From: Eledone cirrhosa
Taxonomy: Eukaryota
Assembly: GCA_964016885.1 (NCBI GenBank)
Contig: OZ024751.1
Span: 32,860,001 to 32,924,000 of the forward strand
DNA: 64,000 nt
Direction: 5' to 3'
In this document: piece after piece, positions 10,216 to 60,605 of the stretch
Layout of the letters: the number at the start of each line of letters is the position of its first letter
Position numbering within the stretch: the stretch's first letter is position 1
Program-made: the position numbers and the translations under genes
Notes under the pieces: model-generated
What the model was told of the DNA's origin: nothing
Seen by the model: the letters and a program-made list of their open reading frames with translations, nothing else
Database searches by the model: none

Positions 10216-10742
10216 AATGTCAATTCAAAATGTCATCGTGAATCACTTTCCTTTGAGCTCAGTCAGAAGCAGATAGCAATGAGTGTACAAATAAAGAAAT
10301 ACATCTTTTCTAAAGAGGTCCCCTCCGCTCCTCCTCATCATCATCTCTATCAACACCTTCCTAATTCTCTTCCTCATCAACAAAAGTATTTTCTAATATA
10401 AAATATTCAAGTCAATGCAATGAGTTAAACAAATATGGCGTCTGTAGTGTAATGGGTTTAGATTTAGTTTTGTTCCGCCATCTAAACAAGCATTAAATAT
10501 GAAACCCATTCAGAAAACTTTCGTTCGCTGACATTTTTCTATTTAACGTTGGAAACAAAACCTGAGACACACACGCACATATATATACATACATATACAT
10601 ATATATATATATATATAAATATATACATACATATAGATATATACACACATACAAGCATATAAACATAGATGTAGATCTCGCGTAAAATCGTATGTAATCA
10701 CGATTAAAAATGTACTCAATACATTAGTAGTACGTATACATC

Positions 10743-10874
10743 CATGTTTAATATAGATATGGCTTCTACATGAGTAGAACTGTTTCATTCTTATGAAATC
10801 ATCAGGAATGCCTGATGATTTCATACGAATGAAACATCTCTAGTCCTGTAGAAGTCAATTATATATTAAACATG
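10743..10874. mobile_element. ~132-bp fold-back element with about 64-bp arms, each carrying a hammerhead-like core CUGAUGA-U-UUC-N4-GAA-U-GAAAC
   Basis: The left arm catgtttaatatag...gaaatcatcagg is the near reverse complement of cctgatgatttcatacgaatgaaac...tattaaacatg, with a 4-nt centre (aatg). Stem I cannot form. Confidence 0.7.
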
Positions 10875-10948
10875 ATGTTTACGTTCTATTAATGTATTGA
10901 GTACCTTACTTACTGTGGTTATCTCCAATTGAACCCGGCACTCTTACA

Positions 10949-17842: not shown

Positions 17843-17850
17843 CATATATA
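13140..17850. repeat. Large (TA)n/(TACA)n compound microsatellite array
   Basis: Direct inspection; all ORFs here are Y/I/H/T or Y/M/C/V artefacts. Confidence 0.97.
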
Positions 17851-17952
17851 TGAATATAGACATAGAATATTCGAAAATATTCTGTATGTTTATAATAAAC
17901 ATTTTGAAGACCTAATCGCTATAGAATAGAATACGTCACGTATTACAATTAG

Positions 17953-18041
17953 ATTCTCGATAAAAGCAAGGGAAGTAATCTACGCGTTTCATTCTTGTTG
18001 GAAATCATCAGGACTACATATCCAGTGCTTTTATCGAGAAT
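17953..18041 (-). ncRNA. Type I hammerhead ribozyme, short palindromic stem III (copy 1)
   Basis: Minus strand reads auucucgauaaaagca-cuggauau-GUAGUC-CUGAUGA-U-UUC-caacaa-GAA-U-GAAA-CGC-GUA/GAUUAC-uucccu-ugcuuuuaucgagaau. Stem I is 6 bp, extended by a perfect 16-bp helix; stem III is the palindrome ACGCGU; predicted cut between 17981 and 17980. Position 10.1/11.1 is a non-canonical U-U. Confidence 0.8.
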
Positions 18042-18262
18042 GACACAGCTAGAGACTTATAGAATACTTAGCTGTGTACAGGAACTGGTTTGAAAGAGCG
18101 GTTGCCGGTCCGGCAGAAATTAGAAATTGGAATAAATGCTCTGAAATAGCGATATATATGTGAATATAGACATAGAATATTCGAAAATATTCTGTATGTT
18201 TATAATAAACATTTTGAAGACCTAATCGCTATAGAATAGAATACGTCACGTATTACAATTAG

Positions 18263-18351
18263 ATTCTCGATAAAAGCAAGGGAAGTAATCTACGCGTTTC
18301 ATTCTTGTTGGAAATCATCAGGACTACATATCCAGTGCTTTTATCGAGAAT
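18263..18351 (-). ncRNA. Type I hammerhead ribozyme, short palindromic stem III (copy 2)
   Basis: Identical to 17953-18041, offset by 310 bp; predicted cut between 18291 and 18290. Confidence 0.8.
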
Positions 18352-18371
18352 GACACAGCTAGAGACTTATA

Positions 18372-19428
18372 TATATACATATACATACATATATATATAT
18401 ACATATACATACATATATATATACATATGCATACATATATATATGTATATATATATGTATGTATATGTATTTATGTATATATACATATACATACATATAT
18501 ATATACATATACATACATATATATATATATATACATATACATACATATATATATATATATACATATACATACATATATATATATATATACATATACATAC
18601 ATATATATATATATACACATATACATACATATATATATATATACATATACATACATATATATATATATACATATACATACATATATATATATACATATAC
18701 ATACATATATATATATATACATATACATACATATATATATATACATATACATACATATATATATATACATATACATACATATATATATATACATATACAT
18801 ACATATATATATATACATATACATACATATATATATATACATATACATACATATATATATATACATATACATACATACATATATATATATACATATACAT
18901 ACATATACATATATACATATATACATATACATACATATATATATATACATATACATACATATATACATATACATACATATATATATATACATATACATAC
19001 ATATATACATATACATACATATATATATATACATATACATATACATATACATACATATATATATATACATACATATATATATATACATACATATATATAT
19101 ATACATACATATATATATATACATACATATATATATATACATACATATATATATATACATATACATACATATATATATATACATATACATACATATATAT
19201 ATATACATATACATACATATATATATATACATATACATACATATATATATATACATATACATACATACATATATACATACATACATATATATATACATAT
19301 ACATACATACATATATATATACATAACATATATATATACATACATACATATATACATACATATATATATACATACATATATATATACATACATACATATC
19401 TGTATACATATCATATATACATACATAC
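18372..19428. repeat. (TA)n/(TACA)n microsatellite array
   Basis: Direct inspection. Confidence 0.97.
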
Positions 19429-21837
19429 AGATCTGTATGGGAAACGGATGACGGATTCAACAGACAAGCTAATTGGCTAAAAGAACTGGAACAGGACTAC
19501 TGCCAACATGTCCAGACAAAACAATATGACATAGATGGGTCAATACTGGAAACAGCTCTACAGAAAATGTCGAATAGGAAATCGCCAGGCCCAGACCTCA
19601 TTACAGGATACTGGTTGAAGAATTTCACTTTCTATCGGCAAGATCTCATACGGCTGTTTACAGAAACCATTAAGGGCACACAAGAACTGCCCAGATGGTT
19701 ATCAACTGCCTCTACTCTCCTCATTCCCCAAAATAGCCAAACCACCCTTGCTAAAAATTACCGCCCAATTGCCTGCCAAAACATCATGTATAAATTATAT
19801 ACTGGGTGCCTTAACCTGTTCTTACAGGATCACTGTGCTACCAACAACATCATAACACCTGAGCAAGCTGGTGGAAAGAGGGAGGTGTGGGGTTGCATAG
19901 ATCACCTACTAACTAACAAAATGATTCAGGAAAAAACAACAAAGAATCGCAGAAACATGACTGTCGTGTGGCTGGACTATCAAAAAGCATTTGATAGTGT
20001 ACCTCATGGGTGGATTGTTAAGGCTTTACAGTTAGCTAAAGTCCCACAACCATTGGTAGCTGCTGTTGAACGCCTGACCAAGAACTGGTACACCAGTTTG
20101 ATCCTTAGAGGTGAGAAGGAGCAGGTTAAGACTGATAAGATACATTACCAGAAGGGCATCTTTCAGGGTGATAGCTTGTCAGTGCTACTCTTCGTTCTCT
20201 CACTGAATCCACTATCTTACCTACTCAGGAAACAAGGTCGACAAAGAAGTGGGACCAGAAGTATCTCCCATCTTTTCTTTGTTGATGACCTGAAGTTGTA
20301 TGGGCCAAATATCAATGACATCAAGAAACAATTGGACCTCATTACACAATTTTCAACCGACATCAAAATGAAATTTGGTGAGTCCAAGTGTGCATATTTG
20401 GCAGTAAAACGTGGAAGAGCTGTGCCCTCCTCTAGAAATCTAGAGATGAACGGCCTGACAATACAACCTCTGCAGTCAGGTGACAACTACAGATATCTTG
20501 GACAGGATGAGAATGTCAGATATGATGGACCCATAAATAAGGAGAGAACCAGACTGAATACCTCAGAAGAGTAAAGAAAATATGGTCATCAGAACTGTCA
20601 GCATACAACAAATACATTGCCCACAATACTTATGCTGTGCCAATTCTAACGCCAACATTTGGCCTACTGAACTGGTCATTGCAAGAACTAAGTGAGATGG
20701 ATGTTAGAACTCGAAAACTTCTGTGTTACTGGGAACTTTAACATCAATGGTGATGTGGATAGGCTATACTTCTCACGCAAGGAAGGTGGCCGGGGTCTAA
20801 AATCAATATTAACAACATATGAGACCCGGATAGTGACACTGAAGCAACACCTTCAACAGAGGAAAAAGGTTGGCAACCATCTTGCCCAGGTTTATGACCA
20901 TGAAAAAAGAAATATCATTAGAATAGCGACTGATCTGGAGGAGAGATATGGAATAAAGCCCGATATAAATCTCTCACCCAGAGAAATCGGAAGATCCTAT
21001 TCAATGTTCAAACAAGAAAAAAAAATTGACCAATTTACAGAAAAAGTTGTGCATGGATACTTGAGGCGTAAAACACAGACCATAGAGGGGATAAACCACT
21101 CAAAAAGCCTGGCATGGAGTTCCGACAAGTTTATGACATCACACCTTGAGGGATATCTCTATGCAATACAGGAACAAGAACTCCCTACCAAATATCTGCT
21201 GCACAAAAGAGGAGGGCCAGCAGCTGACAATAAATGTAGGCTATGTAAAACAAAGATCGAGGATGTAAGCCACATTGTTGCCAGCTGCGAAAGAATGTCA
21301 TCTCGCTACTACCTCCCCATGAGACACGATGGGATAGCTAGAACCATCTGGAACGCACTTCGGAAAACAAAATCAACAACAAACGAGGAAGAATATATTG
21401 AGACAGATGGCACTAAGGAATACTGGTGGAACCTGAAAATAAAAACTGCCACCAAATTAAAGCACAACCGGCCTGATATTGTAGTTTGGGACCACACATT
21501 GAAAACGTGTTCTGTTGTGGAGATCAGCTGCCCACTTGATGTAAACGTTGTCAGAAAAATACAGGAGAAGGAGGACATCTACGGACCATTGATGAGGAGT
21601 TTACAAATCCAGTATCCAAGATACACCTTTAGCTTCATACCCATCATTATTGGTGCTACGGGTTATATACCAACCCGCTTGGACCAAAGTATGACTGAAC
21701 TTGGATTTGCGGACCAAAGTATGACTGAACTTGGATTTGCGGACAAAAAGCGCAGCTCCCTAATTCATAGTCTACAAATGGCTGCGATAGCTGGCACCTT
21801 CAAAATTTGCAAAATATTCTTGCGATTCAAGGGATGA
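19429..21837 (+). pseudogene. Disrupted RT/RLE ORF of the R4-type element
   Basis: The frame is open from 19429 ([17 protein letters not shown]...). It shifts near 20550 (conserved EYLRRVKKIWSSELSAYNK continues in another frame) and shifts back near 20724. There is an in-frame 30-bp duplication at 21681-21740; stop at 21837. Confidence 0.88.
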
Positions 21838-22559: not shown

Positions 22560-23171
22560 TGGTGGCTGCCAACTCGTTTTCGAGTACGGCCACTACTTTA
22601 TATCCATGTAGGAGAACCCCTACCGATGCGCTGAACGAGTGTGACTTTTTAGTCCAGCCAACGACCTGAAAACTCTGAACCAAAAACCACACTTGTGACA
22701 ATTATTGACACATAGTGCTGGGCCCATGGTACCATGTGACGACAAGTGCAGAGAGATCTCCAGATACAAAGCAATGCCTGTGCCGTGAAGCTTTTATAGT
22801 GAGCAAAGGCACTGCACAAAGCCAGTCCCACTCTCTTAACCAAGATGATATTTACCAAAAAGAAGAACAAGTCAACATCATTGGATACCATCAGGGTTGC
22901 AGGTGTTATATCAGAGTTTTCCTTCTCCTAGAATTCTGCCTTGACAAAGGCTAAGGGGTCATCTCTCCCAGTGATTTTGGATGGCTATTGACTCTTAAGA
23001 GCCCCTTTGCCTTTTGACAGGTTTTGTTTTTAGTCCTGCAGGATGTCCAAAGCCACCCTCCTCACCAAGAAACCTTGGTGGGGTTGCCAGTTTAGTCGCC
23101 GACGACCCGACCATGAGACAGGTTGGTACTGGGATACATGTTACCAGTAGCACCAACTGGTGACCTGACAT
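22560..23171 (-). mobile_element. ~610-bp non-coding interspersed element, probably a non-autonomous RTE-derived retroposon
   Basis: Unique island in microsatellite; 22560-22881 recurs at 56934-57254. The minus strand contains ctaggagaaggaaaactctga, a motif I associate from memory with RTE 5' UTRs (not verified). Confidence 0.6.
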
Positions 23172-25254: not shown

Positions 25255-27472
25255 GGATTGACGCTATGGATTTCCACAATGCAAACTGGGAAGCGATCAG
25301 TCATGATCTTGCACATGTCGACTGGTCCTTCACGCACACTCATACACCCACTAACATCAAAAAGTCCTGGCAGACATTTGTGGACACTGTTACAAACATA
25401 TGTGCTAAACACACCCCATTAAGAACTATAAACAAATCTAAGAGCAGAATCCCTAGAAATAGAAAAACACTCATCAGAAAAATTAAGAGAACGAACAAAA
25501 AAATCAACAAGCTGAAATACTGTCAGCAGCAACACATCAACTTGACTGCCATTTCATCACTAGAGATTAAAAAACATAACCTCCAAAACAACATAATGTC
25601 CCTCATCAACAATCAGAGAAGAGCTGAAGAGGCCTGGGCCATTGAGAAGATCAAACTCAATCCCAAAGTGTTCTTTTCATTTGCAAAAAAACACAAAATC
25701 GCTGGCTCTACTGTTGGCCCTCTAATTGATGAAAATGGCACTCTTCAAGACAATGCTAAAACCATGGGTGAGATACTGCAGAAACAATACTGCTCTGTTT
25801 TCAGCAATCCTGATATGGCCGATCTGGGCTGTATCGGCGATGTTACTCCCCATTACACCTTATCGGACATAACGTTTGGCGCCCCTGATGTCTTGGCGGC
25901 AATAAAGGAAATCAAGCATAATTCAGCAGTAGGTCCCGATAGGTTCCCTGCTTGTGTCTTGAAGGCGTGTCAACACCAACTTGCTTCTCCTCTTGCCAAT
26001 CTGTGGCGGAACTCACTGGATGCTGGATATGTGCCAGAAAACCTTCTATCCCAGTCTGTTGTCCCAGTTTTCAAAAAGGGAAACAAATCCCTTGCCGTGA
26101 ATTACCGTCCAATCTCACTCACCTCTCATATCATTAAGGTATTTGAGCGAGTGGTGAGATCGCGAATGACCCACTTCCTTGAGAGTAACAATATGCTGAA
26201 CTCCAACCAGCATGGATTCCGTAATGGAAGGGATTGCCTGACGCAACTACTGCATCACTTTGATGACATTTTGAGAGCCTTGGGAGAGGGTTCCAACACT
26301 GATGTTATCTACCTTGATTTCAGCAAGGCCTTTGACAGGGTTGATCATAACATTCTACTGAGAAAGCTGTCCAATATTGGTGTCACTGGAAAGCTGCTGC
26401 AGTGGATCAAGAGCTTCCTGTCAAACAGAACCCAACATGTTGTAGTTGAGGGAGTCAAATCAAGCCCAGCCAAAGTCAGTAGTGGAGTCCCACAAGGCAC
26501 TGTGTTGGGCCCACTTCTCTTCATCATCTATATTAATGACATCACTGACATCATCAAACACAGCAACATTAAAATTTTCGCTGATGATTCCAAGCTCCAA
26601 AAGGTCATCAATGGCGTGGATGACCGGATAAGCCTTCAGTCAGACCTACTGGCTGTTACCCAATGGGCAGAAAAGAACAACATGTTACTGAACGAAGACA
26701 AATTCGAACTGATCCACTTTGGAAAAGAGGATGCTCTGAAACTCCCGTACTCCCTTCCCTCCGGGGAAACTCTCGTGGCATCTAACAACATCAGAGACTT
26801 GGGAGTAACCGTGGACAGCAACATAAGCTGGACCACGCATATAAGCAGCAAAGTTGACATGGCCCGCAGAATGTGTTCCTGGATCCTCAGAACCTTCCAG
26901 TCGAGAGATTCCCGCACCATTATCCTTCTCTTCTCTACTTTCGCCCGACCACACCTTGAATACTGTTGTCCACTGTGGTCTCCCCACACGAAACAAAGTA
27001 TCATGAAACTTGAAGCTCCTCAAAGGGCAATCACGAAAAAGATAGATGGCATGTCAGACCTTGACTACTGGGGTCGATTGGAAAACCTGAAACTTTACTC
27101 ACTCCAACGTCGCCGTGAGCGTTATATTATCTGCATGATGTGGAAAATGTTCCATCATCACTGCCCAAATGATGTTGGCATCGCCTTCAAGATACACCCA
27201 AGGCTTGGGCCCCGTGCTATCCGTCCCATTCAAAAATCTAAATCGCAACTCATAACAACAATACGGCACAATTATTTCACCTCAATCGGCCCTGCTGCCC
27301 TGCTCTCTTCAACATCACACCAGGACACGTCAAAACAGAAACTGACCACACAAAATTCAAGAAGTCTTTGGACAAATTCCTCCAAGTAATCCCGGACAAA
27401 CCACCCACACCCGGATATGTCTCCGCAAACAGTAATTCTCTTCTCGAATGGGCCATGGTGCCCAAATCCTGA
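25255..27472 (+). pseudogene. ORF2 remnant (reverse transcriptase) of the CR1-group LINE
   Basis: Open through the whole RT. An 8-bp duplication (gccctgct, 27289-27304) shifts the frame; removing it restores GPALFNITP...[29 protein letters not shown] to TGA at 27470-27472. Confidence 0.88.
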
Positions 27473-33850: not shown

Positions 33851-33886
<36 letters not shown>

Positions 33887-34080
33887 ATATTAACAAATGG
33901 AAACTATATTTATAAAACCATATTTATTTCATTATACATATTTCAAGGACACCAAGTTAAATTATGGTGTGCTTTCATCAGATAATATAGATCAGTTTTA
34001 TAAATAAATATTGACATACCCTTAAAGAATGCAACCATTACTGTTGGAAGCTCCCGGATAGTGGAGTTGTAGCTTTAATT

Positions 34081-34312
34081 ATATAAGATCAAAAGATGGT
34101 TAAAAGAGTTCCATGTATTTTATTATGCGCATTTCAGAAACAAATATCATGGGAGGATATTTGAGTTCTCATCAGATAAAATAGGGAGACATGATATGAA
34201 GCTTAAAAAACACTTGCGAGCAGTGAAGTGTTAAATCTACATATGATATTTGTTTCTGAAATGCGTATAATAAAATACATGGAACTCTTTTAACCATCTT
34301 TTGATCTTATAT
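34081..34312. mobile_element. Inverted-repeat (MITE/fold-back-like) element with 70-bp arms and a ~92-bp spacer
   Basis: 34081-34150 and 34243-34312 are reverse complements with one mismatch. Confidence 0.7.
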
Positions 34313-34401
34313 TATTTATACTCCAGTCCTATAAACTGTTGAGTGCTACTTATCCGATATTTGCATTGCTTTATTGTGCTACAATAAAACTCATCTCCTA
34401 C

Positions 34402-34434
<33 letters not shown>

Positions 34435-36600: not shown

Positions 36601-37275
36601 GATGATTGTGGTGTCGATAAGAAATAGATTGGATATTGATGACAATGATGATGATGGTGGCGATGAGAGAGGTGATGATAACGTGATAGAGAGAAATGGT
36701 GGCGATGATGTGGTTGGTGCTGAGTAAGGTGATAGGGAAGAAAGATAACAAGTACAACTTTGACGGTAACTGCATTAAGGATTCGGTTACCAAAAACAGA
36801 AAATAATAACAGAAATAATAATAAAAATATTTAAAACCAAACTAAAAGAAAGAAATGTCGAGATGTGAGATGATAATAGTGGTAAATAAGTAAATAAGGA
36901 GTGAAGAGTGATAGGATGTCTCGGGATAGGCGATAGCGATAATTATATTTGTGTAATATTTTGCTGTTGTTATCGTTTTTAGTACCAAGTCTTCAATGGT
37001 TGGGAAAGAGTATAACAAAAGGCGTTCCAACCGTGATCAGACCATCTCGCTTGGTCCCACCTAGCGTATCTAGTAATAATGTAGCGAATTTGAGTCGTTA
37101 GAGCGTCGAAATATATTTACCAGTCTAGTACTGGGATCGATTCTTCTTCTATATCACTTTCTCACTCTGTCTATCGTTCCTTGGAAGAAATCTGCTATAT
37201 TCAGAGCTGGAGAGGACTGGGCTCCCTCAGGTTTAAAAATCACCCTAGAAACACCGTATATTACTACGCCGCCCT

Positions 37276-37393
37276 TAATGATAGTGACCCCAGTCCTATC
37301 ATCTCACATCTACAGCTGATTAAATTACCCAAGACACCTCCAACGAGATATACCTTGAAGGAGGCCAGCTAAACCTGTATAGGTGTGAGCTGT
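37276..37393 (+). mobile_element. Short rearranged fragment of the SINE at 60364-60605
   Basis: 37276-37319 matches 60435-60479 in the same orientation; 37320-37393 is the reverse complement of 60364-60438. Confidence 0.65.
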
Positions 37394-56933: not shown

Positions 56934-57254
56934 TGGTGGCTGCCAACTCGTTTTCGAGTACGGCCACTACTTTATATCCATGTAGGAGAACCCCTACCGA
57001 AGCGCTGAACGAGTGTGACTTTTTAGTCCAGCCAGCGACTTGAACACTCTGGTACAAACACTACACTTGTGACAATTATTGACACATAGTGCTGGGCCCA
57101 TGGTACCATGTGACGACAAGTGCAGAGAGATCTCCAGATATAAAGCAATGCCTGTGCCGCGAAGCTTTTATAGTGAGCAAAGGCACTGCACAAAGCCAGT
57201 CCCACTCTCTTAACCAAGATAATATTTACCAAAAAGAAGAACAAGTCAACATCA
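56934..57254 (-). mobile_element. Truncated second copy of the 22560-23171 element
   Basis: Near-identical to 22560-22881 with the same left boundary (tggtggctgcc); flanked by CATA repeats on both sides. Confidence 0.8.
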
Positions 57255-57353
57255 TACATACATACAGCCCCCCCCCCGAACATGTATACACACTTCAACA
57301 GCATTCTAATAAATATTACCTGTTCATGTAATCAAAGTGTGTATACATCTTTG

Positions 57354-57861: not shown

Positions 57862-58237
57862 ATTTGTTTAGTTATTGCAATTGCTATTGATAACTGTTGC
57901 ATGGAATCTTCGGGTATAACCTTTTCAATTAAGGTAGCTTAAACACACACCCACACATATTTACAGCACATGATTATGATACATTTATATATATATAATA
58001 CACAGGTGCAATGCATATATATACAATACGCAGGTACAATACAGAGAACAACACATGCTCACAACACATGGATATGGTGCATGTATGTATAATACATATA
58101 CTGTATAACACATGCAATGCATGTTTATACAATAAATGTATATATAACACATAGTTACAAGGTATGTGTGTATAACACAGTTATAATACATATACATATA
58201 TAACACATCGTGGCACATGTATATACAACTCAGATGT

Positions 58238-58271
<34 letters not shown>

Positions 58272-58697
58272 TTTACACATACACCAATTAAACAAGGTCA
58301 CAGATATATATGTGTTTTGGCAACCATTCACGATGTGGCTCAATGAAGAATTAATAAATTAAACAATCAGAGCCAAATACTATAAAGTAAAGCATGTCCA
58401 TAGAATCATTTGATAATATATATACATCATTTCTTCTCCCAATTAGCATAATTAACCACACAAAAAAAATCAATTAGACCAGGCTATAAGATTAAAAGGC
58501 ACCTATGAAGAAACAGTAAATAAATAAACGATAGCAGCGTCTTCGCGGCCAACCGCTATAGAATATATATATCTGTGACTTTGTTTAATTGGTGTATATG
58601 TAAATATTTATATTTAATAATCTGCCATAAGGTTGAGATGCAATTTGGGCAATATTGGGCTGCTCTTTCTAGCAACCAACCCACTCGCCGTAAGCAA

Positions 58698-58771
58698 CCA
58701 ATCACACTCTTTCTGACTTGACCACTGCCACGTCACAGTTCTTAGCCATTTTGAATTCGTGTTTGGCGGGA
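58698..58771 (+). promoter_or_regulatory. Cluster of Pol II promoter-type motifs upstream of the hammerhead
   Basis: CCAATCA (58698), GCCACGTCA CRE/ATF-like (58727), GCCATTTT YY1-like (58745) and TTTGGCGGGA E2F-like (58762) within 75 bp. Confidence 0.4.
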
Positions 58772-58792
58772 GCCACTTCAGAAAATATTCTG

Positions 58793-58890
58793 TCCTAGCG
58801 AGTTTGTCCCCTGAAGAGTTCGAAACTCGAGATTTATCCTTAATAGGATATCTCAAAATGAGAACGAAACCCATGGGTCGGGATTTAGGG
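58793..58890 (+). ncRNA. Type I hammerhead ribozyme with canonical core and extended stem II
   Basis: Stem I GUCCC(58806-10)/GGGAU(58880-84), extended by UCCUAG/UUAGGG; CUGAAGA (58811-17); stem II GUUC/GAAC with inner hairpin UAUCCU-uaau-AGGAUA; GAAA (58866-69); palindromic stem III ACCCAUGGGU; GUC cut predicted after 58879. Confidence 0.88.
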
Positions 58891-59185
58891 ATTTAATTCT
58901 GATAGAAATGCTTATGTATATAAGCATTTCTAACTTTAATTTTATACCTAATTGTGTATGGTTGACCGTATATTTAATTAATTTCCACGTGCTTTTGAAA
59001 TGTTGGGTAAATATTCTATAGCGGTTGGCCTTGAAGACGCTGCTATCGTTTATTTATTTACTGTTTCTTCATAGGTGCCTTTTAATCTTATAGCCTGGTC
59101 TAATTGATTTTTTGTGTGGTTAATTATGCTAATTGGGAGAAGAAATGATGTATATATATTATCAACTAATTTTATGGACATGCTT

Positions 59186-60214
<1,029 letters not shown>

Positions 60215-60221
60215 CTATTAT

Positions 60222-60271
<50 letters not shown>

Positions 60272-60363: not shown

Positions 60364-60605
60364 ACAGCTCACACCTATGCAGGTTTAGCTGGCCTCCTCC
60401 AAGGTTTATCTCGTTAGAGGTGTCTTGGGTGATTTAATGATAGGGACCCCAGTCCTATCATCTCATTTCTACAGCTGAGTAAACTGGAGCAACGTGAAAT
60501 AAAGTGTCTTGCTCAAGAAAACAACATATCACCCGGTCCGAGAATTGAACTAACAACCTTTCGATTGCAAGCCCAATGCCCTAAGCACTAAGTCATGCGC
60601 CTTCA
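60364..60605 (-). mobile_element. tRNA-derived SINE, family B
   Basis: The minus strand starts with tRNA-like gcgcatgacttagtgcttagggcattgggcttgcaatcgaaaggttgttagttcaattctc, then a ttgagcaagacactttatttcacgttgctccag core. Confidence 0.75.

Follow-up and report, generated by a model that had tools for sequence, protein, structure and literature searches.

The insert at positions 58263-59189 of the DNA analysed here is, with a probability of roughly 0.7, a non-autonomous, non-coding copy of the Penelope-like (retrozyme-type) kind, which carries an inverted 5' part and was copied from an uncleaved tandem or circular RNA. The whole stretch of DNA that was analysed, hereafter the window, comprises 64,000 nt of AT-rich, animal-type sequence, about 40% of which is simple repeat (25,994 of 64,000 bases masked). 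A Penelope-like or retrozyme-type retro-insertion with a 5' inversion had been proposed in the preliminary description, and this proposal was supported by the geometry of the locus, a hammerhead motif, junctions on TA runs and a strand-specific RNA fold. The features on which the argument depends are as follows.

58241-58267, no strand: left (TA)n target tract, in the host minisatellite (sequence and repeat analysis)
58263-58311, minus strand: A', inverted copy of A, outer end of the inverted cDNA and its putative priming point (2 mismatches in 49 against 58565-58613)
58312-58385, minus strand: D', 74-nt segment of single occurrence that would join C to A in the source (no partner in the window)
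58386-58566, minus strand: C', inverted copy of C (95% over 189 columns including flanks, E 7e-83)
58563-58572, no strand: inversion junction, (AT)5, in which 58565-58566 are common to C' and A as a 2-nt microhomology
58565-58613, plus strand: A, 49 nt, 18% GC, duplicated at the inversion point, with TA runs at both ends (sequence comparison)
58614-59010, plus strand: B, 397-nt single-copy non-coding body with the hammerhead, a 13-bp hairpin (58903-58932) and the 5' arm of the long hairpin
58806-58884, plus strand: type I hammerhead with complete core, in B (motif-plus-stems scan; Rfam RF00163 below cut-off)
58947-59137, plus strand only: predicted long imperfect RNA hairpin of late B with C, rich in G-U pairs (folding against shuffles)
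59011-59189, plus strand: C, 179 nt, right end of the insert and putative priming point of the sense copy (BLAST and alignment)
59189-59237, no strand: right (TA)n target tract (sequence)

Read on the minus strand, the left part of the insert (58263-58566) has the order C-D-A, and the right part (58565-59189) has the order A-B-C. This geometry, an inverted C-D-A followed by A-B-C, was borne out by BLAST and alignment in the coordinates and counts first given for it. A and A' differ at 58580 and 58598 (2/49; BLAST E 4e-17), and C and C' differ by substitutions at 59031, 59032, 59166, 59168, and 59172 and by one 2-nt indel in a T run, making 7 differing columns in about 180 (BLAST E 7e-83). The segments A, B, C, and D sum to 49 + 397 + 179 + 74 = 699 nt, in agreement with the earlier estimate of about 700 nt, and the implied unit has 34.8% GC. 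If both parts came from one source order, that order was C-D-A-B-C, which is 878 nt long with a period of 699 nt, and the map of 58263-58566 supports the contention that C ran through D into A in the source. A partial tandem, or pseudo-LTR, arrangement with C present twice one unit apart occurs only in this reconstructed source; the chromosomal copies are inverted. The inverted repeats had been called nested, but the pairs cross: A' and A delimit 58263-58613, and C' and C delimit 58386-59189. This interleaving excludes a simple terminal-inverted-repeat element. A DNA transposon with fixed terminal inverted repeats is likewise disfavoured: the ends of the insert pair with internal sites and the termini do not match each other. 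Divergence of A/A' (4.1%) and C/C' (2.8%) did not differ in a test of low power (Fisher p 0.64-0.68), and the two pairs, as had been suggested, are diverged to an extent that fits one event, weak though the test is. Of the 7 substitutions, 6 run in one direction between GC and AT and 1 in the other, which is no significant bias (p 0.125). No second copy of the element was detected by BLAST in the window after masking of simple repeats, and since none was found in the window, in prokaryotic genomes, or by protein proxies, the 699-nt unit rests on one locus. By eye, C contains a possible short GT-AG intron with a pyrimidine tract (59007-59080), which overlaps the predicted hairpin; introns can be retained by Penelope-like elements (PLEs), according to excerpts of PMC8557442.

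The insert sits within a (TA)n run of a host minisatellite. In BLAST, its left flank (58202-58267) is up to 95% identical to the minisatellite units that follow the insert on the right, and (TA)n is present on both sides, as in the microsatellite or AT-rich targets of PLE-type insertions; with (TA)n on both flanks, a target-site duplication is unreadable. All three junctions of the insert fall on TA microhomologies. At the left end, 58263-58267 are common to the TA target and the element end (5 nt; 7/8 positions), and at the right end 1 nt is common and the (TA)n tract matches the source beyond C at 5/6 positions (59189-59194, mismatch at 59190). On the RNA strand both outer ends are 3' ends, located at UA-rich sites in its interior, which is what priming of a cDNA by each nicked strand of the target would produce; the offset between the two outer ends is 123 nt (D+A). 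The inverted part (58263-58566) abuts the sense part, and thereby forms an inverted 5'-truncated copy next to its 5' end. A 7-bp inverted repeat, read from the sequence, extends across the A|B junction (58601-58616).

The neighbourhood of the insert is unstable: a minisatellite has expanded at 59189-60026, and 59967-60270 form a near-perfect palindrome. Within the expansion, units of 75-89 nt (59230-59940) are composed of host repeat, (TA)n, and a 6-nt motif that is also the outer end of the arm of the palindrome near 60 kb. D (58312-58385) and a flanking minisatellite unit (59245-59260) have a 10-nt word in common, probably by chance. Several dispersed short repeats are also present in the window, as are two LINE-type retrotransposons with RVT_1 domains (19327-21837 and 25269-27389), for which Pfam placed RVT_1 at 19483-20571 and 25269-27386 and zf-RVT at 20692-21834. 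The LINE at 19327-21837 is split across two frames, and a 321-nt 3' piece of it recurs at 56935-57255 (96%), with the source copy at 22561-22881, past a simple-repeat tract. In appearance the repeats of the window are suggestive of a cephalopod; should this impression be correct, it is of relevance that an excerpted octopus repeat annotation records 31 Penelope-like families as recently active (PMC13282606).

The hammerhead claimed for B was recovered on the plus strand at 58806-58884, with a complete core. It has a 5-bp stem I, all core positions, an extended stem II with a G-C pair at its base, and a GUC triplet. Stem III is a 10-nt palindrome (58869-58878), and cleavage is predicted after 58879. 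The strict motif-plus-stems scan matched this site and 0 of 2000 dinucleotide shuffles of the element. RF00163 scored 20.9 bits here (E 0.078), below the gathering score of 34, and a scan of the whole window against Rfam at the gathering threshold returned 0 matches; miRNA matches obtained at an E-value threshold were dismissed as hairpin or TA artefacts. By motif and stems, the insert thus has a type I hammerhead in its terminal repeat region, as do PLE-type insertions. Folded without constraint, the motif does not adopt the catalytic structure (z -0.8), and alternative helices are predicted. The hammerheads of amphibian retrozymes are described, in excerpts of PMC7229834, as having a palindromic helix III and as cleaving better as dimers; by analogy, dimer-aided cleavage may apply to the motif at 58806-58884.

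Folding of segment 58940-59145 gave -54.3 kcal/mol on the plus strand (z -4.8, 0/100 shuffles, 18 G-U pairs) compared to z 0.06 on the minus strand (45/100 shuffles). This asymmetry points to an RNA-level structure kept on the hammerhead strand. When C was replaced by C' in the hairpin, the energy was unchanged (-54.0 versus -54.3), and so the ancestral copy is not indicated. Folded as a circle, the reconstructed 699-nt unit reached -175.9 kcal/mol (z -3.7, 0/40 shuffles, 60% paired), where much of the signal came from local hairpins. D is predicted to pair with B at 58694-58705 and to close a domain around A; the gain was reached by 7/300 and 8/300 shuffles, with the end point of the pairing picked after the data had been seen. 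Shuffling A had no effect on the D-B pairing (17/40), and shuffling D had little (3/40). The predicted pairing gives a modest hint, and the sole independent one, that D-A-B was a true neighbourhood.

No frame that lies within the element stays free of stops for more than 92 codons. The analysis rejected a coding function for B, C, and D; the element has no long ORF, and no ORF was found after the hammerhead or in early B. The 92-residue frame gave three weak, multi-stretch matches (E 2e-6 to 4e-4, 26-39% identity), which were treated as noise. Two frames across the A|B junction, used as protein proxies, yielded no candidates among proteins near the query length, and no close protein relative of the element frames was found. 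No PLE ORF was seen in the window, whose three long non-repetitive ORFs, compared with Pfam, have RVT_1 or zf-RVT and no GIY-YIG. The exact 24-nt hammerhead pattern had 0 matches in prokaryotic genomes, as expected for an animal repeat, and a bacterial promoter and terminator scan of the element remained at shuffle level and is irrelevant here.

These results imply a source RNA that was longer than one unit. The copied path is 878 nt, or 1.26 units, and it crosses the hammerhead cut site, in keeping with the longer-than-unit template that had been postulated; provided that A preceded B in the source, this rules out a cleaved linear monomer as the only template. Under the same proviso, the map implies as template a tandem transcript that had not been cleaved or a circle formed by ligation, and we place the linear multimer slightly ahead of the circle. 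In the mechanism that we propose, an element with a 699-nt unit would be copied in trans by the reverse transcriptase and endonuclease of a PLE. Both strands of the (TA)n tract would be nicked, and each free end would prime cDNA at a UA-rich spot inside the RNA, as the junctions suggest. The first cDNA would start at the end of C and copy C, B, and A to give the sense part, the second would start just 3' of A and copy A, D, and C to give the inverted part, and the two cDNA ends would be joined on the 2-nt AT overlap.

In the simplest version of this mechanism, twin priming would take place on a single RNA and overrun by 49 nt; we hold this version tentatively, at a little under even odds. The map and the TA microhomology at the junctions support the geometry of twin priming described at the outset, in which 49 nt are duplicated where the inversion begins: on the template, the outer end of the inverted part lies beside the start of the sense part, with a 49-nt overlap. 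The chance that the left start and the sense stop would be this close is ≈0.14 if positions are uniform, and ≈0.25 if ends are drawn preferentially to TA clusters, of which the unit has 6 and A itself 3. The 49-nt closeness is thus weak evidence for one RNA.

In excerpts of PMC8557442, PLE insertions are characterised by a partly tandem arrangement next to which lies an inverted, 5'-truncated copy, by a pLTR with a hammerhead, and by microsatellites as targets. The inverted 5' copies agree with the remark that inverted partial pLTRs are typical of Penelope-like insertions. Parts of PMC11167929 describe a PLE protein that, in vitro, cleaves AT-rich DNA and extends the two target strands; it begins synthesis at an internal position of the RNA and works mainly on RNA that is uncleaved. 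In these excerpted accounts, the endonuclease-positive PLEs (Penelope/Poseidon, Neptune, and Nematis) resemble the insert in the adjacent inverted 5'-truncated copy, the hammerhead, the AT-rich or microsatellite target, the partial tandem (for the insert, in its reconstructed source only), and the internal start on uncleaved RNA. By contrast, autonomous PLEs carry reverse transcriptase and GIY-YIG ORFs, and the insert has neither. The PLE tail is described in the same excerpts as optional and of 30-40 bp at one end (PMC8557442), compared to the 123-nt offset in the insert; with outer ends this far apart, the repeats of the insert cross instead of flanking a whole unit. The PLE start site reported in the excerpts of PMC11167929 is not homologous to the target, whereas both ends of the insert show TA matches. 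Naiads, as far as their excerpted description goes, share (TA)n targets with the insert but are without canonical hammerheads.

Metazoan non-LTR retrozymes, in the portions of PMC7229834 and 10.64898/2026.07.22.740005 drawn on here, resemble the insert in being non-coding, in having a type I hammerhead and a GC content below 45% (34.8% in the insert), and in forming a self-paired predicted circle. The insert accordingly combines the non-coding character, low GC, unit of a few hundred bases, and self-paired circle of a retrozyme, with the fold referring to the reconstructed unit only. Mobilisation of retrozymes by PLEs from circular RNA, giving tandem copies, is put forward as a proposal in the excerpts of PMC7229834. 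Retrozyme units of 170-400 nt (PMC7229834, in part) are shorter than the 699 nt of the insert, which is within the 51-972 bp given in the excerpts of 10.64898/2026.07.22.740005. In those excerpts a retrozyme counts as 'active' when two or more units, all with a complete hammerhead, follow one another, in contrast to the one hammerhead and 1.26 units found here. For this reason the insert is not filed as an active retrozyme and would be at most the partial offspring of an array. The word 'inversion' is absent from the main texts of PMC7229834 and 10.64898/2026.07.22.740005.

For L1 twin priming, the excerpts of 10.1101/2024.08.27.596794 report internal duplication in 283 of 1,703 inversions, with a median of 22 bp. 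The L1 products described there are like the insert in the inverted 5' part, the longer sense part, the short duplication at the inversion point, and the microhomology at the second priming site and at the join. They are unlike it in that the insert has no poly(A) at 59189, an unreadable target duplication, presumably another enzyme, and a self-repeating template (C twice). The insert may therefore work like twin priming but is not L1-type. Neither an autonomous PLE, an 'active' retrozyme, nor a MITE, it works like a non-autonomous PLE or the offspring of a retrozyme.

An identical map would result from two RNAs and no 700-nt repeat, a reading that we consider unlikely. Here a longer PLE-type RNA has B-C-D-A at its 3' end and two start sites, at the ends of C and of A; one cDNA yields the inverted C-D-A, and the other copies C and B and jumps to the A end of the second RNA, so that the A|B junction marks a template jump and the event is still PLE retrotransposition. 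The modelling of the PLE protein as a dimer that extends both strands and has two start sites (PMC11167929, in the parts drawn on) is in accord with this scheme, as is the position of the A end at the same point in both copies, and the 7-bp inverted repeat over A|B (58601-58616) could be a switching scar. Nevertheless, the scheme requires an extra jump, no ORF follows the hammerhead or lies in early B, the predicted pairing of D with early B around A exceeds that of most shuffles, and the 123-nt offset is greater than the PLE tails described in the excerpts of PMC8557442.

Less likely again is a direct C-D-A-B-C insert in which two later replication template switches at self-complementary (TA)n inverted C-D and duplicated A. 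This history retains the longer-than-unit template, and it is consistent with the location of every junction on TA runs and with the unstable neighbourhood (the expansion at 59189-60026 and the palindrome at 59967-60270). It needs two events, however, and predicts that A/A' is no older than C/C', where divergences of 4.1% and 2.8%, not different from each other, were observed; moreover, the recurrence of inverted pieces at other hammerhead islands suits an insertion habit instead. An assembly or read-chimera artefact might be suspected in such AT-repeat-rich surroundings, with a near-perfect palindrome 800 bp away, but we regard it as very improbable: a foldback read would give near-identical arms, and the copies differ at 2/49 sites and in 7 columns in about 180, with D present singly. 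A foldback or terminal-inverted-repeat DNA transposon (MITE) has, if anything, even less to commend it. Inverted repeats and a TA target are both there, but the left end pairs with internal position 58613 and the right end with 58386, the termini are not inverted repeats of each other, and the insert has a hammerhead and a strand-specific RNA fold.

Inverted pieces recur elsewhere in the window. With a relaxed hammerhead scan, 11 matches were obtained, against an average of 1.4 when the 38 kb of non-repetitive DNA were shuffled; 8 of the 11 are in five islands, and 3 isolated weak ones were counted as chance. These figures are to be read with the double-counting of the motif by palindromes, and with the islands having been drawn after looking. 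Four of the five islands contain an inverted duplication (10709-10907, 33884-34403, the insert at 58263-59189, and 60027-60210). The fifth, at 17845-18370 on the minus strand, lies in (TA)n and repeats a 310-nt unit in direct orientation as a partial tandem (≈1.7 copies); both copies have a type I hammerhead, and the two cores are at 18321 and 18011. Its copies differ at 1/218 sites, and the circular fold of the 310-nt unit has z -5.4 (0/60 shuffles); we conclude that 17845-18370 is a better retrozyme candidate than the insert. No local alignment of the insert with the islands at 18 kb, 34 kb, or 60 kb surpassed shuffles (the comparison left out the island at 10.8 kb), and a look-alike motif between C and the 310-nt unit, picked out by eye, was ruled out, as no alignment rose above shuffles.

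The 520-nt island at 33884-34403 (minus strand) lies between (TA)n tracts and has two divergent hammerhead-like motifs 194 nt apart, with a 74-nt inverted duplication (34077-34150 and 34243-34316, 2 mismatches) near its 5' end. The near-perfect palindrome at 59967-60270 is centred on (TA)17; its unique arms of about 80 nt differ by 1 mismatch, and each has an inward hammerhead-like motif with one core base changed. We interpret it as a foldback duplication or an assembly artefact. Related imperfect palindromes occur at 10709-10907 and 2785-2959 (arm identity 85% and 71%; 77% mutual identity over 130 nt), the former with weak head-to-head hammerhead-like motifs at its centre. A dispersed repeat that we take to be SINE-like has a truncated copy at 37275-37393 which, compared with 60364-60483, shows an inverted front, a 5-nt duplication, and a 6-nt junction overlap. 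This is a twin-priming geometry in a family unrelated to the insert.

As an element, the insert is of an ordinary sort and adds another copy to a common type of repeat; as an example of mechanism it is a neat one. It is little unusual because inverted 5' copies are described for PLEs (excerpts of PMC8557442) and inverted pieces recur in the same window. Its assignment to the PLE class is probably right, and single-RNA twin priming and a circular template are possible. How PLEs form tandem and inverted insertions is called undefined in the excerpts of PMC8557442, and a literature search, thin on subscription and older Penelope work and hence no proof of novelty, returned no title on twin priming in PLEs. 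Small non-coding copies such as 58263-59189 preserve both cDNA starts and stops in less than 1 kb, and a genome-wide tally of their junctions would be a cheap test of twin priming against two-RNA models.

A bolder reading, which we consider doubtful, is that the insert records one 699-nt hammerhead circular RNA that was primed twice, once from each nicked (TA)n strand, with strand displacement through A and C. If this were so, copies across the family would have a left start within about 50 nt of the sense stop at varying break points, the duplicated segments would be identical in young copies, and read-through would show a ligated cut site. If the mechanism were also general, circles would be real integration templates, and the inverted pseudo-LTRs of Penelope-like elements and retrozymes, which lack an explanation, would be products of twin priming.
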